From: Acetobacter sp. 46_36
GTDB lineage: Bacteria; Pseudomonadota; Alphaproteobacteria; RF32; CAG-239
Length of the DNA: 64,000 nt
Reading direction: 5' to 3'
Assembly: GCA_001917135.1 (NCBI GenBank)
Contig: MNTT01000015.1
Span: 260,222-324,221 of the forward strand
This document shows, piece after piece, positions 2,474 to 63,969 of this stretch (the first letter of the stretch is position 1; every line of letters begins with the position of its first letter). Both the position numbers and the translations under genes were made by a program. The notes under the pieces are model-generated. The model ran no database searches. It saw only the letters and a list, made by a program, of their open reading frames with translations, and was not told the origin of the DNA.

Positions 2474-3397
2474 TTATATTCTGCAAGCACCTTCAATTTG
2501 GTGGTCAAGCCGGTCTTCATGGATGCCATAGGGGTCTTGGTGGATAAGCACCTGGCTTCCGGGATATGCTTCAAGTATTTTATGCTCAACCGCATCTGCC
2601 AGTTCATGAGCTTTGAGCAAAGATATGGAACCGTCAATTTCCAGATGAAGTTCAAAGTAATAAATATCACCCAGGCTTCTGCTGCGAAAATCGTGCATTC
2701 CGTGTATTCCTTTGCTGTTACGGACAATTTCCGTAATTTTTTCCCTGATTTCGGGAGCTAGTTCCTTGTCGGTTATCTGTTCTACGGATTCTGCAGCCAG
2801 CTGATAAGCATTATACAGTAAATATGCCGAAATAAACAATGCAGCGATTACATCAAAGTATGCAAAACCAAAAAAATGCACCAAAAGCAATGATAAAACA
2901 ACCGTTGCATTTGTCAGAAAGTCAACCGTATAATGCGCTCGATCCGCCTTAATTGCCAGAGAATTGGTCTTATTAGCAACATATGTCTGAAATAAAACCA
3001 ACAGCACAGTTGCCAGAATGCTGAAAAGCATAACCGCAATTCCTATAGCCGTTTGTTCTATTTGCACCGGATATATAAGTCTTTTTATTCCGTCTGCAAT
3101 AACAAAAATTCCAGATGCTCCGACAAAAATAGCCTGCAAAAAGGCGCTTAACGCCTCTGATTTGCCATATCCGTAGCGATGTTCTTTAGTAGCCGGTTTA
3201 GTTGAAAAATAAACCGCGGCGAAAGAAACAGCCGATGCAAACAAATCGGTAACACTGTCGGCAAGGGAAGAAAAAATGGCCAGAGAATCTGTCTTTATAA
3301 AAGCTGCAAGTTTCAAAACAATAAGCAAAACAGCCAGAGAAACACCGGCGATTGCTGCTGCTTTTTTCAAATAATTATTTTGTTCTTGTGATGTCAT
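2474..3397 (-). CDS. Cation diffusion facilitator (CDF) family metal efflux transporter
   Basis: Six TM helices with a HD/HxxxD-type motif (SLADSVTDL), C-terminal cytoplasmic domain, CDF-like. Confidence 0.8.
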   Translation of the reverse strand: MTSQEQNNYLKKAAAIAGVSLAVLLIVLKLAAFIKTDSLAIFSSLADSVTDLFASAVSFAAVYFSTKPATKEHRYGYGKSEALSAFLQAIFVGASGIFVIADGIKRLIYPVQIEQTAIGIAVMLFSILATVLLVLFQTYVANKTNSLAIKADRAHYTVDFLTNATVVLSLLLVHFFGFAYFDVIAALFISAYLLYNAYQLAAESVEQITDKELAPEIREKITEIVRNSKGIHGMHDFRSRSLGDIYYFELHLEIDGSISLLKAHELADAVEHKILEAYPGSQVLIHQDPYGIHEDRLDHQIEGACRI

Positions 3398-6300
3398 TTT
3401 TTATTTTTTCCCATGTTTCTTTTGATATTTCCAAATATTTTCCCCGAACATATTTTTCAAAAAATTCAATATGTTTTCCGTTTGGCGCTTTCAGAAATTC
3501 ATACTGTACATAATATTTGCCGTCATCACTTTGATAAAAAACAAGGTCTACCAAATTATTATGCTCTGCACTGATTTCCAGATTGGCCAGTTTTTTTCCT
3601 TTGATATTTTCTGATATACTTTGATAATAAACATTCAACAAAATTTTTGCGATATTCATTACTTTTATGTTATCGGTTATTTGATTGCAGCTGATTAACC
3701 GTCCAAAACGAAGATTCCATAAACTGCTGTAGGTCCAGGCATTTCTGTCAAGAGAGAGGTCATAAAAATCTGCATCGGCTTCCCATACCTGAAATTGATT
3801 TTTCAACCTTATAAAAGCGGCTTTTGATCCTCGTCCCAAATCCATATCGTACCAGCCTATCTCAAAGTTTTCGATTTCCTGATTAGCATTGTTGTATAAA
3901 CCGACTTCTATCGTGGGCGAATTTTCGTTTTTTAGGGAAGAAAAGCCAAAATATTTCATATCGGCAATTTTATCCGATTTTTTTTCATAAAACGTCATAT
4001 TATTTAGTGCAATTAAAAATCTGCGGATTCGTTCCTGATAAACCGGTATGTTTGGATATTCTTCCAATATCCATATGCCGCTTTCTTTTTTAAATGTCAG
4101 TGATGTCCGGCTGTTTTTCAGCTTTATCAGGGATATATCATTAATTTTGCTACTAAAGTCTTTAAATACCGGTTGTCCTTCATATTCCGAAATACTGTTT
4201 TTGTTTTCCATGTAAATGCTGAAAAAAGCAAGGGCGGCTATTATGGCAACCCATGCAGCCAGTTTGCCGGTTTGATGGTCAATAATAAAAAATTCCTTAA
4301 TGTTGCAAAGAACGGCAGTACGTTTTTTATAATTGAGATTAGTTAGTAAAACAATAAAGATGATAATTAAGGCCACAAAGTAGATATTGAAAAATTTAAC
4401 TTTGACTTCAAGCTGTTCAATATCTCTGTTGGCATTTAGTTTTAATGTGCTGAGTTGTTGTCTGAGATGGTCGATTTCCGTGCGGATATTTCCGATAACG
4501 GCCAGTTCGTCTGAGCTGAAAGTTCCGCGTTCTTCAAAATTCTTTTTTGCAATAACTTCTGCCAGTCCCTGCTTTGCACCGTCTATAGCCTGAAAAATAT
4601 CGTTTTCCTTTAATTTATAACGATACATATTGGCTTTACGCATATTTTCAACTTTATATAACGGGCGTCTTTGGGCATTTTTTCCCCGCAGACTGATTAA
4701 ATCGTCATTTTCTGTCAGATAGTCAAGTGCGTTCATAATAAAGTTTGCACTGTCAAAAATCGGCGTTTGATAAGATAAATCCAAAAATTTGGTTTCTTTA
4801 GCCCAAAAGGCGTCGTACATAAAGTCTGTGTCTCCGACGGCGATAACGTCAAAAGGATTTTTAGGATTATTGCTTAAGAATTCAGCTGCGATGACAATAA
4901 CGTTATTTCCCGGAGTATATTGCTGAAGCACTTCTCTGGGGCTTTTGCTTTCTTTAGCCAGTAAGACATTTAACATTGAGGAATTTCTGCTGGTTTTGAT
5001 TAGAGGAAAATATAAGACGTCGTTTCCCGGTTTGGGCATAACCATCGTTGCTGACGAAAACAAAATGTTATTCAGCTTATATGTTGTTCTGTGGTTTGGA
5101 TTAAAGTCATCCGCGGTAACCTTAAATTGTAAGAGGTCTTGCGTAAAGGACGGGTTGGTTCTGTAATTGATTGTTTCATCTACTGTTATGGAGTTGTCAA
5201 AATCTGCCGCGACGCCGATATCATAAAACTGAATTCCCCAATAGTCGGCAAGCTCGAAAATATCTGACGTTATAAATTGTCCTCCCAGCGGAGAATATAA
5301 GCGCGACGCGTCATCGGCAACGTCCATCAGCAACAAAACTTTAGGCTGTTTTTTTATTTTTTCAATAACATCTTCGCTCAGCCCGTAAGGATGCACCATC
5401 ATCAAAACATCGTATTGCTGATTTAAATCGTCGGGTTTCTCGATAATTTTAACTTTATAAAGTTCTTCAATATATTTAAGGATTTCCCATTTCCTCATCA
5501 TAACATCGTTTTGTCTGACGCCTCCGTTTATCGGCAAGGAGCTTAAAATGCCGATAGTCTTCTTTTTATGGTGCATTTTGTAAATATTCGTGGTCAGATC
5601 CTGTTCTAAGAACGGAAGCCTTTCAATCGAAAAAAACGGAATAACGGCCTTGTTTGTAAGGCTGTCGGAAAGGCTGAGCCCGAACAAAGCGTTTTGGTTA
5701 ATATCTATTAGAGGAATTGGCTGCAACCCTTCGGCTAAAGCCCTGTCTTCGTCTTTATCCAAAAATTCTGGAGTATAAATTTTATAGTCAAATTTTCCGT
5801 TTGCATAAGTTTTATATTGCTTAAGTATCAGTTTTATGCGGTCGAATATCTGCCGGACTTCCGGATTTCTCTGTCCCAAAATCGGGGAATAATATAATTT
5901 GGCAATGACCGGGCGTTCAAGTCTGCGCAAAATATTTTTCGTGTTTTGCGTCAGGCTGAGATATTTTTCTTCCGTAAAATCGTAGCTTATCTGCCGCAGA
6001 ACATTATTGGCAATAATGTTTAAGCCAAAAAAGCCGATAAATAAAAGCATAAGCACCAAAACACCGTGCTTGACGCTTGAAGATGAAATCAAACCTGAAG
6101 AGCCTTTTGTTTTCAGGCTGATGATGGCAATTGTTATTAAATTGAAGAAAACAATCAACGAGCCGAAGAAAACTAAGTCTCTTAATTCAACCAATCCTCG
6201 GCTTAAAGAGGCAAAATGGGCAAGGAAACTGAACGAAATAATAGTGTCGACAATAACGTCGCTGAACAGTTCTCTGGCCCAGAACAAAACATACTCAAAT

Positions 6301-6833
6301 CCGCTCCAGAAAAACAAAAGATTAACAAAAACGCCTAAAACCAGGGCAATAACGGGACTCTTTGTTAATGCCGACATCGTTTGTGATATGGCAAGCATCG
6401 CGCCGGCCAGAATAAAACAGCCGAGATAGCCGATTATAATAACCGTATTATCCGGATTTCCCAAGATATTAACGGTAATCCAAAACGGAAAAGTCAGTAA
6501 AATGGCTATTATTGCAAAAATCCATGATGCCAAAAATTTGCCCCATACCAAATCGGTTACGGAAACAGGAACAGTTAAAATTTGTACAATACTTTTAGTG
6601 TGAAACTCTTCGGCCCAGCTGCGCATGGCAATTCCCGGGATAAACAGCAGATAAATCCAAGGCTGATAATCAAAAAGCCCCCATAGCGAAGCGTATCCGT
6701 CCATAAAAAAATGGCCGAAATAAATGGCGCAGGAGCCGCTTAACAGCAGAAAACCGACCAGATAAACATAAGCCAGAGGAGACAGAAAATACCGTATTAG
6801 TTCATACTTAATGATAGTTTTTATGCTGTTCAT
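3375..6833 (-). CDS. Fused ABC-2 type permease (GldF-like) + GldG-like auxiliary domain + C-terminal DUF4340-like region; 1152 aa
   Basis: N-terminal ~240 aa are a multi-TM ABC-2 permease. Then a large periplasmic region, a TM segment (FNIYFVALIIIFIVLLT) and a further ~350 aa. Sits directly downstream of an ABC ATPase with a 4-nt overlap. Confidence 0.7.
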   Translation of the reverse strand: MNSIKTIIKYELIRYFLSPLAYVYLVGFLLLSGSCAIYFGHFFMDGYASLWGLFDYQPWIYLLFIPGIAMRSWAEEFHTKSIVQILTVPVSVTDLVWGKFLASWIFAIIAILLTFPFWITVNILGNPDNTVIIIGYLGCFILAGAMLAISQTMSALTKSPVIALVLGVFVNLLFFWSGFEYVLFWARELFSDVIVDTIISFSFLAHFASLSRGLVELRDLVFFGSLIVFFNLITIAIISLKTKGSSGLISSSSVKHGVLVLMLLFIGFFGLNIIANNVLRQISYDFTEEKYLSLTQNTKNILRRLERPVIAKLYYSPILGQRNPEVRQIFDRIKLILKQYKTYANGKFDYKIYTPEFLDKDEDRALAEGLQPIPLIDINQNALFGLSLSDSLTNKAVIPFFSIERLPFLEQDLTTNIYKMHHKKKTIGILSSLPINGGVRQNDVMMRKWEILKYIEELYKVKIIEKPDDLNQQYDVLMMVHPYGLSEDVIEKIKKQPKVLLLMDVADDASRLYSPLGGQFITSDIFELADYWGIQFYDIGVAADFDNSITVDETINYRTNPSFTQDLLQFKVTADDFNPNHRTTYKLNNILFSSATMVMPKPGNDVLYFPLIKTSRNSSMLNVLLAKESKSPREVLQQYTPGNNVIVIAAEFLSNNPKNPFDVIAVGDTDFMYDAFWAKETKFLDLSYQTPIFDSANFIMNALDYLTENDDLISLRGKNAQRRPLYKVENMRKANMYRYKLKENDIFQAIDGAKQGLAEVIAKKNFEERGTFSSDELAVIGNIRTEIDHLRQQLSTLKLNANRDIEQLEVKVKFFNIYFVALIIIFIVLLTNLNYKKRTAVLCNIKEFFIIDHQTGKLAAWVAIIAALAFFSIYMENKNSISEYEGQPVFKDFSSKINDISLIKLKNSRTSLTFKKESGIWILEEYPNIPVYQERIRRFLIALNNMTFYEKKSDKIADMKYFGFSSLKNENSPTIEVGLYNNANQEIENFEIGWYDMDLGRGSKAAFIRLKNQFQVWEADADFYDLSLDRNAWTYSSLWNLRFGRLISCNQITDNIKVMNIAKILLNVYYQSISENIKGKKLANLEISAEHNNLVDLVFYQSDDGKYYVQYEFLKAPNGKHIEFFEKYVRGKYLEISKETWEKIKNDITRTK

Positions 6834-7657
6834 GCCAGGGGCTCCTTCGCAACAGTCAGTTTTCGGAACGCTTTTTCCAACAAATCGCTTTTTGTTGCCT
6901 TTAAAATATCCTGCAATGTTCCGTCCGCGGCAATTCTGCCTTTGTTAATAAGGATAATGCGTGAAGCAAGAGTTTCAGCTTCATCCAGAAGGTGTGTCGA
7001 AATAATGATTGTTTTGTCTTTTCCCATGTCTTTGATTAAACGGCGCATATGCTCTTTCTGATTGGGGTCGAGGCCGTCTGTCGGCTCGTCTAAAAGCAAA
7101 ATAGGCGGATTACCGATAATGCTTTGAGCAAAACCGACCCGTCGTAAATATCCTTTTGATAAAGTTTCTATTTTTTGTTGGATAATATCCCGAATTTTTG
7201 CTAAATCAATAATACGTGCAAATTCGTTATCATATATTTTTCTTATTTGTTGTTTGCTTTGCGTTTCTGTTTCCACAAGATTAAGCTTTAATTCTATCAT
7301 ATATCTTAAAAACAATTTAACGGTCATATCCGCATACATCGGAGCGCCTTCCGGCAGAAAGCCTATATCTTTTTTTGTGGCAATGCTTTCTTTGCTTACA
7401 TCTTTCCCATTGACGAAGATTGTACCTTCAGACGGAGAAATAAAACCGGAAATCATATTCATCAGCGTAGATTTTCCTGCACCGTTAGGGCCGAGCAAAG
7501 CGATGATTTCTCCCGTACTGGCGCCAAATGAAACATTATCCACGGCCGTTAAAGTTCCGTATAATTTGGAAACATTCTCCAGACAGACTGAAAAAGGCTG
7601 AGTTTTCCTTTTAATTTGCTTCATAAATTTCACCTCCGGGGATAGGTTGGCTGACAC
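6830..7657 (-). CDS. ABC transporter ATP-binding protein (GldA-like partner of the fused permease)
   Basis: Walker A GPNGAGKST, ABC signature LSKGYLRRV, Walker B ILLLDEPT. The start could be the internal MKQIKRK (about 7624), which would reduce the overlap with anmK. Confidence 0.85.
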   Translation of the reverse strand: MSANLSPEVKFMKQIKRKTQPFSVCLENVSKLYGTLTAVDNVSFGASTGEIIALLGPNGAGKSTLMNMISGFISPSEGTIFVNGKDVSKESIATKKDIGFLPEGAPMYADMTVKLFLRYMIELKLNLVETETQSKQQIRKIYDNEFARIIDLAKIRDIIQQKIETLSKGYLRRVGFAQSIIGNPPILLLDEPTDGLDPNQKEHMRRLIKDMGKDKTIIISTHLLDEAETLASRIILINKGRIAADGTLQDILKATKSDLLEKAFRKLTVAKEPLA

Positions 7658-55984: not shown

Positions 55985-56290
55985 ATGATGTCAAACGTTA
56001 AAATAGCCAAATATATTGCCATATTGCTGGGTGCCTGTATCGTTTTGTGCACTTATTTTGTGTTTTTGAAAATCCTGAATAAGAAAACGGGTATTTCCGG
56101 TGTTCCGGTTTCCACCGAAATAGTGCTGAAAGTTCCTGAAAATGCCGAAGTAAAAGATGTCAGGATAGCCGAGGGAAAAATTTATTTTTTAATGGCATCG
56201 CCTTATGAAGAGAGTTTAGTTATCGTTGACGAAAATGCCCGGCAGGAGATTTTGAAAATTGTTCTGAAAAAGGAGAAAGCCCATGAGTAA
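55985..56290 (+). CDS. Small single-TM protein, first gene of the coupling-protein operon
   Basis: 101 aa, one N-terminal TM (IAILLGACIVLCTYFVFL), AAGGG RBS. No recognisable family. Confidence 0.5.
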   Translation: MMSNVKIAKYIAILLGACIVLCTYFVFLKILNKKTGISGVPVSTEIVLKVPENAEVKDVRIAEGKIYFLMASPYEESLVIVDENARQEILKIVLKKEKAHE

Positions 56291-57380
56291 TGATGATTCT
56301 CTTGATGCCTTTTTGACTGCGGATATGCCGGCGGAGGAAAAGAAAAATAACAAAGACACAAGTTTGGAAGATGAATTTGCCAAGCTTTTGAATGATTTTA
56401 TAAATCAGGATAAACCGGCCGCAAAACCAGATAATAAAAAAACGGAAGATAGTCTGGACAGTTTTCTTGAAAGTTCGGGCAGCGGTCTTGACAGCTTCTT
56501 GACTTCGCCGGTTGTTCCGTCCGAAAACACACCGGCCGCACAGCCGCAGCAGACATCTTTCAATGCGGAATCTGTGGAAAATGCCGCACAGCCGACAGAG
56601 GTGGAGAATTTGTCCGGTCTCGAAGTTCAGTCTGTATTTGCCGCTCCCGAAACCGCGCCGGAAAATATTCAGGCCGACGATACTGCCGCAAATAGGCTGA
56701 AACAGGAAGAGCAGGAATTAGCGCGTGCGGTTGCCAATTTTCAGGATGGCATAGTTGCAATGGCTGACAAAAAAAATCTTAAAGTACCCGATACCGATTA
56801 CAAAGAAGATATGCTGTATCCGAACTATAAGCCCAGTATTGGCAAAAAAATTGCCCAATATCTGCTGGCATGCTGGGATATTATGAATAAATATGATCCT
56901 GAAAATATGAAACGGCTCTCCAAAGATGCCGGAGATGAAGAATATCTCGCTTTTGCCGAAACGCTGAACGATACGGATATGCAGCTTGCCATAATATCGT
57001 ACGTTGAAATTCTTATAAATCTGGAAATTTGCGAGGTCAGCTATGAGCAAAAAAAAGAAATTTTGCAAAAAAATCGGATAAAGCGGGAATTGTATGAAGA
57101 ATATATGGAACTTCAGGAACGAAAAGCCCTGTTTATCAAAAAATTGAAAGAAAAAGATTTTCCGGTAGATGCGGAGCGGCTGATAGGAAATTACTTTCGG
57201 GTTGCACAAAAAGATCCCGACGGCTCGTTTAATGCTTTGGTAAAGAATCCGGCTATGTTTTCTCCGATAGAATTTGAAAAAATCCGGCCCAAATTTTTCG
57301 GATTAATAAAAGTAACGCCCGAAGACGGAATAAAAGCAAATCAAAAAATCGGGCATTTTATAAAAAAACTTAAAGTTTAA
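56283..57380 (+). CDS. Acidic protein: disordered N-terminal half with 3x SLDxFL motif, predicted helical C-terminal domain
   Basis: AAGGAG RBS; start overlaps the previous stop by 8 nt. DSLDAFL / DSLDSFL / GLDSFL tandem motif. No recognisable family. Confidence 0.6.
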   Translation: MSNDDSLDAFLTADMPAEEKKNNKDTSLEDEFAKLLNDFINQDKPAAKPDNKKTEDSLDSFLESSGSGLDSFLTSPVVPSENTPAAQPQQTSFNAESVENAAQPTEVENLSGLEVQSVFAAPETAPENIQADDTAANRLKQEEQELARAVANFQDGIVAMADKKNLKVPDTDYKEDMLYPNYKPSIGKKIAQYLLACWDIMNKYDPENMKRLSKDAGDEEYLAFAETLNDTDMQLAIISYVEILINLEICEVSYEQKKEILQKNRIKRELYEEYMELQERKALFIKKLKEKDFPVDAERLIGNYFRVAQKDPDGSFNALVKNPAMFSPIEFEKIRPKFFGLIKVTPEDGIKANQKIGHFIKKLKV

Positions 57381-57471: not shown

Positions 57472-59103
57472 ATGGCTGAGCAATCCCAAATAAACAAATT
57501 GGACCGGATACTAAAGCAAAATATAGAAGATATGGAAAAAGCTACAGAGGCTAATTTGATTAGTGTTCCTCCCCGAGCCGGGGCAGAAACCGGAAATGGC
57601 AGTGCGCCTGCCGGGCAGCCGCCGGAAACCGGGACGCCGTCTCCGTCAGCAGGAACTGATAATACGGGAACGGGCGGAAACGATACAGGGGACAGCAGCA
57701 GTAACAGTCAGGACGCTCCTGCACAGCCTGAAAACGGACGGGATACACCGGAACCGCGTCGTCCCGAAAAAATTCCCGATGGTATCTCGCGGGCGTATGA
57801 TGATGTGTCTTTAGGCGAATTTGATACCAAAGCCCCGAAAGAAAAAACGGAAACCAAGGGTTCAAAACCTAAAGGCGGCATAACGCCCCCCAAACGCGAC
57901 CGCGGTGGAACCAAGGGAAAATCCGGCGGCGATGATATTATGGAAGTTTTTTGGAATGACTGTATTATGGCTTTTTATGCCTGGACAATAGATACGGTTG
58001 TCGACAATACGCTGGATTTTGCCGAATGGGTACTGTTTTCGCCATACAAATCCGGCGGCAGTACGGTTGAAACTACGACTGAAAAAAAGCCGAAAACCAT
58101 ATATATGTTGGGCGAAGAATTGTATAAAAGCCGTATGGAAAACTTTGCCAAAGAAAAAGATAAGCTGATAGAATTAAACGAAAATCTGGAAAAAAGCGCA
58201 AACGGAATCCAGCCTGAATGGAGACTTTGGGGAAAAATGCCGGCATTTTATCCCAAATTGCAGCAAATTCATGCCAAGGCAATAGAAAATCCCGACTCTG
58301 AAGAAGCCAAATTTATGCATAAGTACGGTTTGGGAAGCAGTGCCGAAACCGTCAAAGGGCGTTTTGCCAAAGAGGAAAAACTGTTTATGCTCGCAGTTCG
58401 TTTGGCTACGGTAGAAGAAGTCGTCAGCGATGCCAAAAATACGATTTCTCCTGAATTTTCCCAAAAATTGGCGGATTTGGATGAAACGTTGAAAAAGAAT
58501 AATTGCAGCAAGCAGGATATAACGGAAAAAATCAATGCTCTGTCTGAAGAAGCAGGCGGAGAATACGCTGTTTGCAAAGGTGTTTCTGATAAAATAGAAG
58601 AGATAAAGACCCTTCTTGAAAAAGATGGCGATATTTCAAAAGTAAAAAAAGATATCGTAAAAAAAGCCAAGGATATTCGTAAGATTTCCGAGGGTGCCGG
58701 CCACGATGAAGACATCATAAAAGAACATATCAGAAAACGCGGCCAGGAAAAATATAAGAGGCTTATGGAAAATATTGATAAAATTCATGAAGCTTATGTG
58801 GATGACCCGGAAAAGGTCAAGGAAACTATTAAAGAATACCTTAGTTCTGTAAATAATGCCGGCAAGGAGGCCAAGCAAGCGACGGACAAAGTCATTGAAG
58901 AAGGCCTGAAAGGCAAAATAAATGCCGGGGAAAAACGTAAAAACGCCAAAGCATCCGTAGAAAAAATTGATACGGCGATAAATGATTTTATGCTTGAAGG
59001 CGAAAAAATATCATCAAAAGCTCCGGCAGCCCAAAAAGATGAATTCGTATTAACGGAAAAACAATTTTCTAAAGCTATAAAAGATTATCGGTTGGGTCGC
59101 TAA
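57472..59103 (+). CDS. 543-aa protein: G/T/P/S-rich disordered N-region, then a long K/E-rich predicted helical domain
   Basis: GGAGG RBS; coding-like composition. No recognisable family. Confidence 0.6.
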   Translation: MAEQSQINKLDRILKQNIEDMEKATEANLISVPPRAGAETGNGSAPAGQPPETGTPSPSAGTDNTGTGGNDTGDSSSNSQDAPAQPENGRDTPEPRRPEKIPDGISRAYDDVSLGEFDTKAPKEKTETKGSKPKGGITPPKRDRGGTKGKSGGDDIMEVFWNDCIMAFYAWTIDTVVDNTLDFAEWVLFSPYKSGGSTVETTTEKKPKTIYMLGEELYKSRMENFAKEKDKLIELNENLEKSANGIQPEWRLWGKMPAFYPKLQQIHAKAIENPDSEEAKFMHKYGLGSSAETVKGRFAKEEKLFMLAVRLATVEEVVSDAKNTISPEFSQKLADLDETLKKNNCSKQDITEKINALSEEAGGEYAVCKGVSDKIEEIKTLLEKDGDISKVKKDIVKKAKDIRKISEGAGHDEDIIKEHIRKRGQEKYKRLMENIDKIHEAYVDDPEKVKETIKEYLSSVNNAGKEAKQATDKVIEEGLKGKINAGEKRKNAKASVEKIDTAINDFMLEGEKISSKAPAAQKDEFVLTEKQFSKAIKDYRLGR

Positions 59104-59114
59104 GGAGAAGATAA

Positions 59115-59606
59115 ATGGCAAAAGTGGAAAAATTGATAAAATTTTTTACGGTTTGTGCAGTTGTTTTTGTCGTTTTGGGGTATATTTGCCGGGAATTGTT
59201 TAAATTTATCTGGAATTTTGATATTTTCAATCGGGAATCTTACCGGATTTTGTATGATTACTGGGAAAACGGCGGCGTATTTAATACGTTTCGGGATTGC
59301 AGCTTGGGGCTGTTCTTGTTTTTAATGCCCGTAATATGGCTGGTTTTGAGTTATAAGCTGTATAAGTACGGGCTGGTGAAGTTTTTGCTTAATCCGTTGG
59401 TTAAACTGTACCGCCGTATAACCCGTCCTAAAACTATGGAAGTTGAACACGTTTCAATCAAAAATCTTGGCGGGAAGGATAAAACGCTGGATGAGATTAT
59501 CGCCGAAAAAGTGGAAAAGCAGGGAGGGAACAAAAGTGCCGGACATGCCTCGCAAAATCTGCGCCGGCAGATAGCTGCAAAAATTGAAGAAAATGAAAAA
59601 CAATAA
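59115..59606 (+). CDS. 2-TM membrane protein, paralogous in its N-terminus to the next gene
   Basis: AAGGAG RBS; TMs FFTVCAVVFVVLGYIC and LGLFLFLMPVIWLVLSY. Shared motif WNFDIF...ESYRILYDYWENGG. Confidence 0.6.
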   Translation: MAKVEKLIKFFTVCAVVFVVLGYICRELFKFIWNFDIFNRESYRILYDYWENGGVFNTFRDCSLGLFLFLMPVIWLVLSYKLYKYGLVKFLLNPLVKLYRRITRPKTMEVEHVSIKNLGGKDKTLDEIIAEKVEKQGGNKSAGHASQNLRRQIAAKIEENEKQ

Positions 59607-59660
59607 TTACTTGTTAACCAATCAATGGATATAATGGGAAAATAAAAGCCGGAGAAGAAC

Positions 59661-60986
59661 TTGAAACCGCTGATAATAATACTAAAAACACTGATAGTCG
59701 GCTATTTATGGAGTATTGTCTTCATAGATGGCATCAGGGTGGTTTTGCTTATAAACTGGCATTTTGACATCTTTTTATCCGAACACTGGCGCCTTTTGAG
59801 TTATAAGTGGAACAGCGGAGCGCCTATGACAAATTCAGAACTGGGCTTTTTTATGATTATAGCCAGCTCGATTCCGCTGTGGCTTGCCGGCTGGGTAGGG
59901 TTATGCCTTGTAAAGTGGGAGCGCCTGCTGAAAAAAGTATTCTTAAGCCCTCTGTATCTTTTCCGCAAAATAACCTTAAAAACCAAACCTCCGGTAGTTG
60001 TTAAGAAAAAGTCCATTGCGGAAGAAACAAAAGTTGTTAAAAAGACGCCGATAATCAAAAAAGCCCCGGTCAAACGTCCGCCGCTGCCGTCTGCGACTTT
60101 AATGCAGTCAAATATAAACAGTAATTTGATGGCATCGCCTGCCGGACGTACTTCTTCCTATACACCGGGCAAAAAAGAGCCGGAAGCGCCGATTAACCAT
60201 GCTCTGTTTAATTTTGACGATGATGATTTTGACTTGGATTTTGATTTTGAAAAGAAAGATAAGAAGCCGGATATCGATGATTCCATTCCTTCGGCGCTTA
60301 TGGTTGACGAGCCGAAAACGATTGAAACCGTTCCTGCGGCGGTTGTTGAAGAAAAGCCTAAAAACACGCCGGCACCTTCAAAAAACCAGGAAAAATCATC
60401 ACCGCAGAATAATAAAAAAGACAATGCCCAGCCTAAAAACAAATCCGCAGATATGTCTGCCGCTCAGGCTATGCCGATTAAGGAATCCCATACTCCGGTT
60501 TTGGATGTTCTTAATCAAAAGGGATTTGACGTCATCCCTTCGGCGATTATCAAAAATACGACAATTGATTACATCGGCGTTTCCAAAAATCAACTCTTTT
60601 TATGCCTGATTGATAAAGAAGCCGGCGACTGGCTGGCGGATGAAGAAAAGTTCAATGATGAAGAGCCGTTATGGTTTTCGGAAAGCAGCCACCGCATTTC
60701 TCCGGTACGAAAGATTGATGTGGCCAGAGATATTTTAAAGACCAAACTGGCTGTCGGAGATATGAATTTTGAAATCATCGCGTATGTTATCATTCAGGCC
60801 GGCAATATTATTAACGCCGAGGATATGTTTGAAATCTGGAACAATATGAACGTAAATGTAACGCGTATAAACCGGGGCAGCCCGAAAGAAATCCGTCTGT
60901 TTTCAAAGTCGTTGGATAATTGTGAGGAAAAAACGGATAAAAATACGCTTGAAAAACTTAAGAAACTTATTCGCAGTCTGGCATAA
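59661..60986 (+). CDS. 2-TM membrane protein with long K/P-rich and acidic-aromatic linker and ~190-aa C-terminal globular domain; TTG start
   Basis: GGAGAAG RBS with TTG at 59661. N-terminus paralogous to the preceding gene (WHFDIF...EHWRLLSYKWNSG). FNFDDDDFDLDFDFE patch. Confidence 0.55.
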   Translation: MKPLIIILKTLIVGYLWSIVFIDGIRVVLLINWHFDIFLSEHWRLLSYKWNSGAPMTNSELGFFMIIASSIPLWLAGWVGLCLVKWERLLKKVFLSPLYLFRKITLKTKPPVVVKKKSIAEETKVVKKTPIIKKAPVKRPPLPSATLMQSNINSNLMASPAGRTSSYTPGKKEPEAPINHALFNFDDDDFDLDFDFEKKDKKPDIDDSIPSALMVDEPKTIETVPAAVVEEKPKNTPAPSKNQEKSSPQNNKKDNAQPKNKSADMSAAQAMPIKESHTPVLDVLNQKGFDVIPSAIIKNTTIDYIGVSKNQLFLCLIDKEAGDWLADEEKFNDEEPLWFSESSHRISPVRKIDVARDILKTKLAVGDMNFEIIAYVIIQAGNIINAEDMFEIWNNMNVNVTRINRGSPKEIRLFSKSLDNCEEKTDKNTLEKLKKLIRSLA

Positions 60987-61010: not shown

Positions 61011-63230
61011 ATGGCAAAAGAAAGAGGAAAAGAATGGGAAGAATATGACAACGCCGTCCGGTGGATGACAATAACGTTCGCCATCGCGGTCGTTGTTACG
61101 GTTGTTTTCATGTATATCGCCCCGATTCTGGCATTTTTTATGCAAAACGGTATTTCCAAAAAGAGTGTGGAAATAGCAGGTTTGTTTTTGAAAAAGTCTT
61201 TTGCAGACTTTGGCTTTTTGTGGGACTGGTATCTGAAATGGTTCAAAAAGGTTTATCGTTACAGCGGCGAGTTTAAAATAAGTTTATGGCCGCCGATTCT
61301 GCCGTTTATTTCTTTTCCGCTGATTTTGATTATCGGCGGCATAAAGTGCCCGTATAAATTCCAATCGAATATTCACGGGTCGGCGCACATTGCTACTTTG
61401 CGCGATATTGAAAAAATGCCGCTGCTCGGATTTGACGGTTTTTGTATGGTGGTCGGCAAGTTTCAGGGTAAAATGCTGAAACTGAAAGAAACGCTGTCAA
61501 CCCTGTGTTGTGCGCCTCCGGGAACCGGTAAAACTGCCGGTGTCGTTATTCCGACAATTTTTAATTCCGAGGGGCTTAGCATTATCGTAAACGACCCGAA
61601 ACCAGAGTTGTGCTACCAGACGACGGGTGCGAGAAACAAGGTCGGCCCTGTATTTGTCATCAACTGGGGTAAGGAAGACAATCCGGCAACTGGAGAATAC
61701 TATCCGAGTTGGAACCCGCTGTCTCCGGGAGCGCTCCCGGCACCGGGGCCGGAACGCGACCTGTATGTCGATTCTATGTGCAACACGCTGGTGGAAGACC
61801 CCAAGGGCGGCGCTGACCCGCACTGGTCAAAAACCGGTCGAAGCGCGCTCTGCGGCTTTATCCATTTTATCTCTTCCAAATGCGAACGGGCTTTAGCTAA
61901 TGAACGCTTTATACAGAAAATTTATGAAGGCTCAATGACAGCCGAAGACAAAGCCGAGTTGATAAAGCTTTACGACGAAATGAGCATCGGCGGTTTGCGG
62001 GCTAATGCCGCGCGCGCAATTCAGGACTTGCAGAACGGAAATCTGACGATTGAAAATTATCTGCCTGTCGGAACCTGGAACCTACTGCCGGAAAAATGGA
62101 TTAACCACGAGCCCTGTCTGGCGATGATTCTGGAATGGATTACTTCGTCCCAGATTGAACAGAGCAATGAAATTAAACGCCGCCTGGAAGAAGGCGACCA
62201 AATGGCCGCTATGGCAGACCCGATGCGCGATTTGCTGGACGCCGCGGTGGAAGAAGCAAATAACTATGGGTATTCCCGCCGCTGCGTAACCGAATTGAGC
62301 GCTTTGAGCGCCATGCCGGATAAAGAGCGGGGATCCGTCCTTTCTACCGGTCTTACCGGTATCGGTATTTTCAAAAACTCGGCAGTTGTGGCCCGTACCA
62401 GCTTTTCCGATATTCAGTTTAAAGATTTGCGTGGTATGAAGGATCCGGTAACCGGCGAATGGAAGCCGATTTCCGTTTACCTTTCGGTTAACCAGACGGA
62501 CGCTCAGGCGTTGAACCCGATTAGCGCGACATTTGTTGACCTGATGAGCGCTTATCTTATTTCAAATCCGCCGAATTCTGTTAACCGTACTGACGGTAAA
62601 ATGGGGCCTTTCCCGACTTTGTTTGTGCTTGACGAGTTCCCGCAGATGCCGAAGCTGAAAGCGGTTATTGACGGGCCGGCGGTCGGCCGCGGACAAAAAG
62701 TTTCGTATCTGCTGATTGGGCAAGACTTGGGTCAGATTTCCGGAAAATACGGTAAAGACGACTTGGAAACAGTTATATCTACAACTGCCTGCAAGGTTAT
62801 TCTGTCACAGAACAACGAACAGACGGCACAGCGTTTTTCCAAAATGATTGGCAATAAAACGGTGCAGACTACGTCCTACAGCCGAAACGAAGGCAGCCTT
62901 GCCAAAGAATATAATCCGTTTGCCAAAAACGTCAGCTATCAGTTGCAGGGCGTTTCAGCCATCAGTGCCAATGACTTGTTGAGTTTGCCGATGCTGAAAC
63001 AGGTCGTGCTGATGCAAGGCTCGATTGATACGCCGATTATGGCAGACGCGCCGCGTTTTTATCTGGACAAGAAAATGCTGGCAATGTCAAAGCTCCCGCA
63101 TTCTCCGTGGGTTCCGGACTGGATTGTTGCTCAGCGTACTGATGAAAATGAGGATATCCTGTCTAAATTAGGTATAGACTATGATCCGAATGCAGAAGAA
63201 GAGGAAGGTTTTGAAGAAGACGAAGCTTAA
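61011..63230 (+). CDS. Type IV secretion/conjugation coupling protein (VirD4/TraG/TraD family ATPase), 739 aa with acidic C-terminal tail
   Basis: Two N-terminal TMs, IHGSAHIATLRD (TraG/VirD4 HGSARWA-like motif), Walker A APPGTGKTAG, Walker B LFVLDEFPQM, C-terminus ...DPNAEEEEGFEEDEA. Confidence 0.85.
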   Translation: MAKERGKEWEEYDNAVRWMTITFAIAVVVTVVFMYIAPILAFFMQNGISKKSVEIAGLFLKKSFADFGFLWDWYLKWFKKVYRYSGEFKISLWPPILPFISFPLILIIGGIKCPYKFQSNIHGSAHIATLRDIEKMPLLGFDGFCMVVGKFQGKMLKLKETLSTLCCAPPGTGKTAGVVIPTIFNSEGLSIIVNDPKPELCYQTTGARNKVGPVFVINWGKEDNPATGEYYPSWNPLSPGALPAPGPERDLYVDSMCNTLVEDPKGGADPHWSKTGRSALCGFIHFISSKCERALANERFIQKIYEGSMTAEDKAELIKLYDEMSIGGLRANAARAIQDLQNGNLTIENYLPVGTWNLLPEKWINHEPCLAMILEWITSSQIEQSNEIKRRLEEGDQMAAMADPMRDLLDAAVEEANNYGYSRRCVTELSALSAMPDKERGSVLSTGLTGIGIFKNSAVVARTSFSDIQFKDLRGMKDPVTGEWKPISVYLSVNQTDAQALNPISATFVDLMSAYLISNPPNSVNRTDGKMGPFPTLFVLDEFPQMPKLKAVIDGPAVGRGQKVSYLLIGQDLGQISGKYGKDDLETVISTTACKVILSQNNEQTAQRFSKMIGNKTVQTTSYSRNEGSLAKEYNPFAKNVSYQLQGVSAISANDLLSLPMLKQVVLMQGSIDTPIMADAPRFYLDKKMLAMSKLPHSPWVPDWIVAQRTDENEDILSKLGIDYDPNAEEEEGFEEDEA

Positions 63231-63246
63231 ATCTGCCGCTGCGGAA

Positions 63247-63969
63247 ATGAGAAGTTTTTCTCTGTGGTGCGTTTTGAAGAGCAGTATAAAATTTATACTG
63301 CTCTTCAAGCGTACATTTTTATTGTGGTGTTTGGCAAATTTTGCTTTTCTGATTGTCTTTAGGCAGATTCCAAATGGCTGGACCAATTCGCTGAGCATCC
63401 TGTGGCTTGTTGCCTACTATGTGTTTTGGTGCGTGTTTGTCCGTCATATTCAGCAGCATCCGCCTTATTTTTCCCTAATTCGTATTTTTAACGGTTTGAT
63501 TCCCGCCAGCAAAATTATGTTTATTAACATTATAATCTATTTGGTTTTGGTAATTGCTCCATACATTCCATTATTTATGGGTTTTAGGGAGAAATATCTG
63601 GAATTTTTTGAGCAATATATGGCTGTTTTGCAAAGCCATAATTCCCTGCCGGGGAAAACGCTGTTTTATGTATTAATGCTGCTGTTGTCTCCGTATACGA
63701 TAAGCCGGCCGTATCTTGCCTGGTTATCATCGCTGATAGGAAAAAGCCGCTCAATCATAGATGCTTACAAAAAGACACAAGGCAACTATTGGAATTTTGT
63801 CTTTTGTGCAGTTGTTATGAGCGGGCTGTTTGCTCTGTCATATTTTATTGACGTTACTTATAAAACAAGCTCTCTGATTTTTGTAATGTCAGTCCTGCCG
63901 ATATTTTTCAATGTCGTCTTTATTGATATTTACAAAGTATTTTACAAGCGTAGAAAAAATATCAAATAA
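63247..63969 (+). CDS. Polytopic membrane protein of unknown function, last gene of the operon
   Basis: About 6 hydrophobic segments. Start ambiguous: the track ORF starts at 63181 and overlaps the T4CP gene by 50 nt; MRSFSLW at 63247 avoids the overlap. Confidence 0.5.
   Translation: MRSFSLWCVLKSSIKFILLFKRTFLLWCLANFAFLIVFRQIPNGWTNSLSILWLVAYYVFWCVFVRHIQQHPPYFSLIRIFNGLIPASKIMFINIIIYLVLVIAPYIPLFMGFREKYLEFFEQYMAVLQSHNSLPGKTLFYVLMLLLSPYTISRPYLAWLSSLIGKSRSIIDAYKKTQGNYWNFVFCAVVMSGLFALSYFIDVTYKTSSLIFVMSVLPIFFNVVFIDIYKVFYKRRKNIK

Follow-up and report, generated by a model that had tools for sequence, protein, structure and literature searches.

A tandem pair of membrane proteins ahead of a coupling ATPase

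We found that in a 64,000-nucleotide stretch of Acetobacter sp. 46_36 contig MNTT01000015.1 (hereafter the window, meaning the whole stretch) two paralogous inner-membrane proteins of 163 and 441 amino acids (aa), p163 and p441, are encoded in tandem directly upstream of a type IV coupling protein (T4CP). The two share an N-terminal helical hairpin, and p441 additionally carries a C-terminal domain for which structure modelling supports a PD-(D/E)xK/NERD-like fold. We tentatively read p441 and p163 as a membrane-tethered accessory pair of the T4CP that binds or processes its substrate, and give this slightly less than an even chance. A membrane-anchored NERD-type domain protein is a kind of coupling-protein partner that has not been described before. 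Coupling proteins decide what type IV secretion systems (T4SSs) export, and to our knowledge their partners are known for a few model systems only, namely DotM/DotN/IcmSW, TraM and the VirC/VirE chaperones. If p441 and the T4CP cooperate, they would constitute a new type of coupling complex, possibly with the T4CP function detached from a VirB channel, and would give a first way into the function of a NERD-like domain that is widespread and unannotated and is marked by a WLADEE...PLWFSE...SP loop; if they do not, the outcome is simply a new conserved membrane protein family. The finding would be more interesting if the T4CP operon acts without a VirB channel.

The p163 gene (59115..59606, plus strand) has an ATG start and the Shine-Dalgarno sequence AGGAG, the p441 gene (59661-60986, plus strand) has a TTG start with GGAG 8 nucleotides (nt) upstream, and a Shine-Dalgarno-like sequence also precedes the T4CP gene (61011..63230, plus strand, 739 aa). 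The intergenic gaps are 11 nt between the preceding gene and p163, 54 nt between p163 and p441, and 24 nt between p441 and the T4CP gene, so that both open reading frames (ORFs) lie where the earlier note on this DNA, made from the letters alone, had placed them. We identified 925 database relatives of p441 and 79 clusters of p163 homologs, nearly all of the latter being 160-166 aa long. Compared with the closest genome (L006, 98% identity), the ratio of nonsynonymous to synonymous substitution rates (dN/dS) is 0.11 for p163 and 0.02 for p441, with 0.00 in the transmembrane (TM) domain, 0.04 in the linker and 0.00 in the C-terminal domain of the latter. This confirms p163 and p441 as real genes under purifying selection, without the high dN/dS that the earlier note had named as a sign of non-coding ORFs.

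The N-termini are homologous helical hairpins

The paralogy proposed for the two N-termini was borne out by direct alignment, with 32% identity over 77 aa (BLASTP, E=2e-7), and by comparison of family profiles built from 25 homologs each (hhalign probability 95.6%, E=1.2e-8, 104 columns). When the inter-helix loops alone were aligned, the Smith-Waterman score reached 58, compared with 20.7 on average (standard deviation 4.2) in shuffled sequences, and none of 5000 shuffles scored as high, so the similarity does not merely reflect TM composition. On these alignments, the N-terminal ~105 residues of p163 and p441 are homologous.

Hydropathy places the TM segments at residues ~7-28 and 62-80 of p163 and ~4-31 and 61-84 of p441, in agreement with the two-TM topology suggested for both, and AlphaFold modelled the N-terminal region of p441 as a long helical hairpin. 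A net charge of +15 across residues 85-140 of p441 points to an N-in/C-in topology, which puts the shared motif, W-(N/H)-F-D-I-F...W...G, in a periplasmic loop of ~30 residues. These data show that p163 and p441 both insert as N-in/C-in helical hairpins with a conserved aromatic motif at the periplasmic tip. In p441, whose N-domain comprises residues 1-110 (59661..59990, plus strand), the motif reads W33-H-F35-D-I-F...H-W43...W50-N-S-G53, and of 89 representative sequences, 87 retain W33 and 88 retain F35. The inter-helix motif that had been written for both proteins is present in each, although the spacing after FDIF is x2 rather than x3 and the element L-x-Y-x-W suits p441 only.

After its N-domain, p163 has a basic cytoplasmic tail of ~80 aa with the conserved ending ...RxQIAAKIEENEKQ. 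At the positions of p163 and p441, two of the more divergent loci, L091 (8001-10431) and L098 (5177-7500), encode a tandem pair of full-length paralogs, both of which have two TM segments and a NERD-like domain. From this we conclude that p163 is the upstream copy, truncated to the N-domain after losing the nuclease-fold domain, and that the duplication is old.

Two other arrangements were considered and rejected. A p441 hairpin derived by duplication of the T4CP anchor is opposed by an hhalign probability of 0.2% between the T4CP TM domain and the p441 N-domain, and a periplasmic C-domain is disfavoured by the positive-inside rule, given the +15 charge after the second TM segment, and by the lack of a signal peptide.

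A disordered linker with a nearly invariant acidic-aromatic patch

The linker of p441 (residues 111-275; 59991..60485, plus strand) begins with a basic, K/P-rich juxtamembrane stretch, followed by an acidic-aromatic patch, both of which had been described from the sequence. About residues 111-277 are modelled as disordered, with a predicted local distance difference test (pLDDT) score below 50. The patch HALFNFDDDDFDLDFDFE spans residues 180-197 (nt 60198-60251; charge −7), and its acidic part FNFDDDDFDLDFDFE spans residues 183-197. Its conservation in homologs, a point raised by the earlier note, was also found: the patch is nearly invariant among 25 p441 homologs at 57-83% identity.

The C-terminal domain of p441 has a predicted NERD-like fold

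We modelled p441 by AlphaFold with the 25-sequence alignment. Within the C-domain (residues 276-441; 60486..60986, plus strand), a globular domain is present as had been proposed, spanning ~163 aa (residues 279-441, pLDDT 85-91) rather than ~190 aa. The modelled order is a helix, three strands, a low-confidence loop (320-347), a helix, a strand, a helix, a strand and two helices, which contains the restriction-endonuclease-like a-bbb-a-b core fold. The domain is alpha/beta and acidic (net charge −4), with an invariant acidic loop.

In profile searches, p441 itself matched nothing in Pfam or NCBIfam, and it did not match the Pfam family NERD (PF08378) even at E ≤ 10. NERD was the sole Pfam family matched repeatedly by its homologs, namely by 13 of the 25 close ones at E ≤ 10 and, in a diverse set of 25, by 9 at E ≤ 1, with a best E of ~3e-5; in addition, the L091 paralog reaches 18.1 bits, short of the cut-off of 22.1, and homolog P0089 has a precomputed NERD match. 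Because of the modelled topology and these repeated matches, the PD-(D/E)xK/NERD-like fold, which had been put forward as speculation, is now supported as a prediction. The p441 family profile (25 homologs), when compared with all PDB chain sequences, gave two chance-level matches (E 0.9-2.6), neither of them to DotM. Solved PD-(D/E)xK nucleases such as Can2/Card1 and NucS/EndoMS share 10-12% sequence identity with the C-domain, but differ in being soluble, in having canonical catalytic residues and in their other accessory domains (CARF, PCNA-binding).

The candidate site comprises D282, D303 and D318-K319-E320. D303, on strand 2, is found in 75 of 99 representative sequences and D318, on strand 3, in 82 of 112, while the position of the Lys is E320 in p441 and is occupied by E in 63, Q in 11, D in 8 and K in 7 of 117 representative sequences. 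Compared with NERD, p441 thus has D-K/R-E instead of the (D/E)xK Lys, an arrangement D...D-x-E that we take to resemble that of BamHI, with Glu at the Lys position, so that the domain may still be catalytic. It further differs from NERD in having a two-TM domain dedicated to anchoring it in the membrane, and in that its conservation is dominated by a long invariant acidic-aromatic loop (WLADEE...PLWFSE...SP).

This acidic-aromatic loop after strand 3 is shown by the alignments as the most conserved feature of the C-domain. The signature runs G322-DWLADEEKFNDEEPLWFSESSHRISPVR-350, with the consensus W-L-A-D-E-E...P-L-W-F-S-E...S-P and the invariant residues W324, A326, E328, P336, W338, S347 and P348. 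A second motif, G381-NIINAEDM-389...W393 (G-x-I-I-N-A-E-D-M...W), holds the invariant residues N385 and W393. Among the 25 homologs at 57-83% identity, the 28-residue stretch GDWLADEEKFNDEEPLWFSESSHRISPVR of the C-domain is nearly invariant.

The coupling ATPase is a diverged and highly conserved VirD4

The T4CP matches the Pfam families T4SS-DNA_transf (7.4e-54), TraG-D_C and TrwB_AAD_bind, has two N-terminal TM segments, and retains an intact Walker A (PPGTGKT) and Walker B (LFVLDEF). It lies below the cut-off of every NCBIfam T4CP model, and we therefore regard it as a diverged VirD4/TraG; against PDB sequences no match was found at 1e-3. Its best annotated relatives, at 35-39% identity, are the VirD4 proteins that end virB4...B8-B9-B10-B11-D4 clusters on sphingomonad megaplasmids of Sphingosinicella and Erythrobacter. 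On sequence comparison, the protein is of VirD4 type (VirB/D4, type IVA) and not DotL. With a dN/dS of 0.003 against L006, its conservation is extreme for a coupling protein. When the seven operon proteins were all scanned with Pfam, NCBIfam and PADLOC, only the T4CP received an assignment, and within PADLOC nothing convincing emerged, the only match being a marginal one of the T4CP to mad8.

In the gut clade, the T4CP carries an acidic-aromatic tail (EEEEGFEEDEA) within its last 45 residues, with a net charge of −9 to −21. L089, L097 and L098, which are divergent lineages, lack this tail.

Gene order suggests a link between p441 and the coupling protein

Relatives were found in 382 species-level genomes, all of them metagenome-assembled genomes of uncultured gut or rumen Alphaproteobacteria, a set that probably corresponds to the GTDB group RF32. 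We compared 85 loci (L001-L085), which comprise 80 species-level genomes and 5 further contigs. In all of the 85 loci extending far enough, the order is rpoH and rluD in leftward orientation, followed by rightward p365, (p543), p163-like, p441 and T4CP genes, and it is retained down to ~40% p441 identity. The T4CP gene directly follows p441 in 84 of the 85 loci, that is, in all whose contig reaches past p441, and the encoded T4CP is 64-100% identical in these 84, the contig of the remaining locus ending ahead of the gene. Across 13 diverse loci the p365-like proteins measure 283-440 aa, the p163-like 159-179 aa, the p441-like 404-444 aa and the T4CPs 738-760 aa. The seven-gene operon is chromosomal and occupies a fixed core-genome position beside rpoH/rluD, and a whole clade of uncultured gut Alphaproteobacteria has retained its VirD4-type ATPase, which is unusually conserved.

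Ten more divergent lineages of the p441 family were also sampled (L087 and L088 being taken as one). In L089, L090, L096, L097 and L098, a p441-like gene (24-32% identity) lies directly upstream of a T4CP gene whose product is 49-58% identical to that of the window; in L097 the p441-like and T4CP genes form a bare two-gene unit between dsbA and unrelated genes, and in L098 two full-length paralogs precede the T4CP gene. The pair survives rearrangement of its surroundings, and a functional link is therefore favoured; the link to the T4CP that the earlier note had suggested from adjacency gains support in this way.

Several observations weigh against our reading of p441 and p163 as partners of the T4CP. 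In the other five distant lineages (L086, L087/L088, L091, L092 and L093; 20-24% identity) no T4CP gene adjoins the p441-like gene, so the association of the family with coupling proteins is not obligatory. VirB, relaxase and other T4SS genes are absent from the 64-kb window and the inspected locus flanks. No relatives of p441 were found on 72,556 plasmids or in IMG/VR viral contigs, so known conjugative systems lend the reading no support. The canonical catalytic motif D...(D/E)-x-K is not present, Lys being replaced by Glu (D-K/R-E), and E320 is itself not conserved in distant family members. Finally, the C-domain core recurs in unrelated architectures, and we therefore regard it as a mobile, general-purpose, unannotated NERD-like module.

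This last point emerged from a profile search of the full library, which returned 367 representative proteins at E ≤ 1e-3, most of them with the same architecture of two TM segments, linker and domain. Outside the two-TM architecture the core (GDWLADEERFNDEEPLWFSESSHRVSPV ... IINAEDM..W) recurs almost unchanged, including in 1500-residue TPR-Roc-COR-TIR proteins and in AAA+ ATPases (P0268 612-766; P0284 680-850; P0330 13-130; P0335 68-147), and tandem copies occur in a protein cluster with an Akkermansia sequence among its members, with two copies each in P0339, P0306 and P0320. No Pfam model covers the core shared with the TPR-Roc-COR-TIR, AAA+ and Akkermansia-type proteins.

The same observations bear on an alternative in which p441 is a member of a general family of NERD-like proteins that are tethered to the membrane in Alphaproteobacteria and have their own task, for which envelope-associated nucleic-acid processing or sensing are candidate roles, and the adjacency to the T4CP gene is inherited gene order. 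Such a family would account for the mobile C-domain and for the five of ten distant lineages without an adjoining T4CP gene, where the p441-like genes lie among atp, secG/pyrG, acc and other housekeeping genes. It would equally account for L091, which keeps the rpoH/rluD position, the p365-like gene and the two full-length paralogs but has no T4CP gene downstream, where a 493-aa protein of unknown function and a 928-aa beta-helix protein are encoded instead. However, the p441-like/T4CP pair is found in at least three different neighbourhoods, including the bare unit of L097, with gaps of 10-160 nt, and the T4CPs beside p441-like genes form one subfamily (49-100% identity), as opposed to the 35-39% identity of the best plasmid VirD4. 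Taken together, we consider an independent function of p441 somewhat unlikely, yet a serious contender.

The fusion of the C-domain core to TIR, Roc-COR and AAA+ modules, which are typical of conflict systems, also raises the possibility of a defence or toxin module, in which a membrane-tethered NERD nuclease would degrade incoming DNA and the T4CP-like ATPase would serve as the motor; NERD and PD-(D/E)xK domains are indeed common in defence systems. A fixed core-genome position in all 80 species-level loci extending far enough and the very low dN/dS are at odds with such a role, as are the absence of PADLOC matches besides the marginal mad8 match of the T4CP, the absence of p441 copies from plasmids and viral contigs, and the missing canonical Lys. 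A defence function thus appears highly improbable.

Comparison with DotM and VirB/D4 systems

The earlier note had also likened the pair to DotM-type components of a coupling complex. The two do resemble each other in having an N-terminal TM anchor and a cytoplasmic domain and in being encoded with a coupling ATPase, and recognition based on charge through acidic motifs is plausible in both. However, DotM spans the membrane with three helices, and its domain, a novel all-alpha fold with positive charge, binds the Glu-rich tails of effectors (PMC5802825), and its structures are available in the PDB (5X1U; PMC5802825). By contrast, p441 has only two such helices, its nuclease-fold domain is alpha/beta and acidic instead of all-alpha with basic patches, and the acidic motif is on p441 itself. 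Its partner is VirD4-type and not DotL, and no dot/icm or virB genes were found in the window or the inspected flanks. With no similarity to DotM in sequence or fold, the comparison is reduced to a loose functional analogy.

A receptor of DotM type would, by that analogy, recruit secreted effector proteins to the T4CP. The similar layout of membrane anchor, cytoplasmic domain and T4CP neighbour is in line with this, other small or acidic operon proteins could be its adaptors or substrates, and the lineage is host-associated. Nevertheless, the dissimilarity in sequence and fold, with an acidic nuclease fold in p441 and an all-alpha basic domain in DotM (PMC5802825), the VirD4 type of the T4CP, and the lack of secretion channel genes seen nearby make such a receptor quite unlikely.

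When compared with VirD4/TraG of VirB/D4 systems, the window ATPase is alike in its T4CP domains, its two N-terminal TM segments and its Walker motifs. The surroundings differ, as the genes upstream of the T4CP gene encode five proteins without family assignment instead of virB8-11, and as the operon is chromosomal, core and vertically inherited, with no relaxase or channel genes nearby. Reading the upstream genes as highly diverged VirB8-B11 was rejected, since there is no ATPase among them and their sizes and topologies do not match, and p441 as VirB10 was rejected because its C-domain is predicted to be a nuclease fold and not the VirB10 barrel. A literature search on RF32/CAG-239/CAG-495 secretion systems, on NERD together with T4CP, and on orphan VirD4 proteins returned nothing relevant.

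These differences leave room for a further interpretation, in which the T4CP, p441, p163 and the four unassigned operon proteins would form an autonomous machine of the inner membrane, one translocating or processing nucleic acid with no VirB-type channel involved. We regard this as unlikely. That it would represent a vertically inherited, housekeeping use of a coupling ATPase, by analogy to FtsK/SpoIIIE, is given an equally low probability, and there is likewise a small chance that the domain with the WLADEE-PLWFSE loop represents a new variant of the NERD fold that binds nucleic acid or metal and is also reused in Roc-COR-TIR and AAA+ proteins.

Under the reading that we prefer, of p441 and p163 as an accessory pair of the T4CP, the hairpins of both would pack against each other and against the two-TM N-domain in the T4CP hexamer, an arrangement that would hold the nuclease-fold domain at the mouth of the ATPase on its cytoplasmic side. 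In this position, the domain would bind and possibly cut the substrate, most likely nucleic acid, or would gate access to the ATPase, and p163 would be a stoichiometric or regulatory subunit without the domain. Short acidic-aromatic motifs recur on three operon proteins, namely p441, the N-terminus of p365 and the tail of the T4CP, and may act as docking peptides for basic surfaces within the complex.

Other members of the operon

The first gene of the operon, p101 (55985..56290, plus strand), encodes a small, single-TM protein, and an ORF of 93-101 aa is present at its position in 8 of the 13 diverse loci. It is followed by p365 (56283..57380, plus strand), a soluble, acidic protein whose N-terminal ~130 aa are disordered and contain at least three acidic-hydrophobic (S/G)LD(A/S)F(L) repeats, while residues 135-365 are confidently modelled as a helical bundle with no informative structural match. 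The p365 family has 636 relatives and no annotation, and its profile matched nothing among PDB sequences. The third gene, p543 (57472..59103, plus strand), encodes a soluble, acidic and fast-evolving protein whose N-terminus is of low complexity and which contains a long helical region; all 13 diverse loci have an equivalent at this position (469-686 aa), with alignment identity falling to 9-13%.

On the 3' side of the T4CP gene lies p262 (63181..63969, plus strand), which encodes a basic, multi-TM protein with a charge of +26, and a membrane-protein ORF of 182-269 aa is found 3' of the T4CP gene in most loci. At 63274-63308, 44 nt past the T4CP stop and inside the 5' end of the ORF 63181-63969, lies an inverted repeat whose 17-bp arms match perfectly around a loop of 1 nt; a T-rich run follows it. 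The hairpin is retained in L001 (13597-13623) with both arms changed (TATAAA/TTTATA to TACGAA/TTCGTA), and from this pattern it is probably a terminator or an attenuator. Because of the hairpin, the true start of p262 is uncertain and may lie further downstream.

The surrounding window

The rpoH and rluD genes lie directly upstream of the operon, and the remainder of the window consists of housekeeping genes, among them those for RlmN, TyrRS, GlmM, RecN, a CDF transporter and AnmK. Near the operon, the L002 and L001 contigs, which encode an identical p441 homolog (P0010), are collinear except for an insert in L002 (18168-20409) between infC and fba, comprising a GmrSD/HNH gene and an EcoRI-type methylase gene, which we read as a small variable defence islet. 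Elsewhere in the window, carA/carB and a nuo operon were guessed by size alone. Finally, on the minus strand at 3375-7657, a 1152-aa ABC_transp_aux/DUF4340 protein with ABC-2 permease-like segments is encoded beside an ABC ATPase, and the two were read as a gliding-type auxiliary ABC system.

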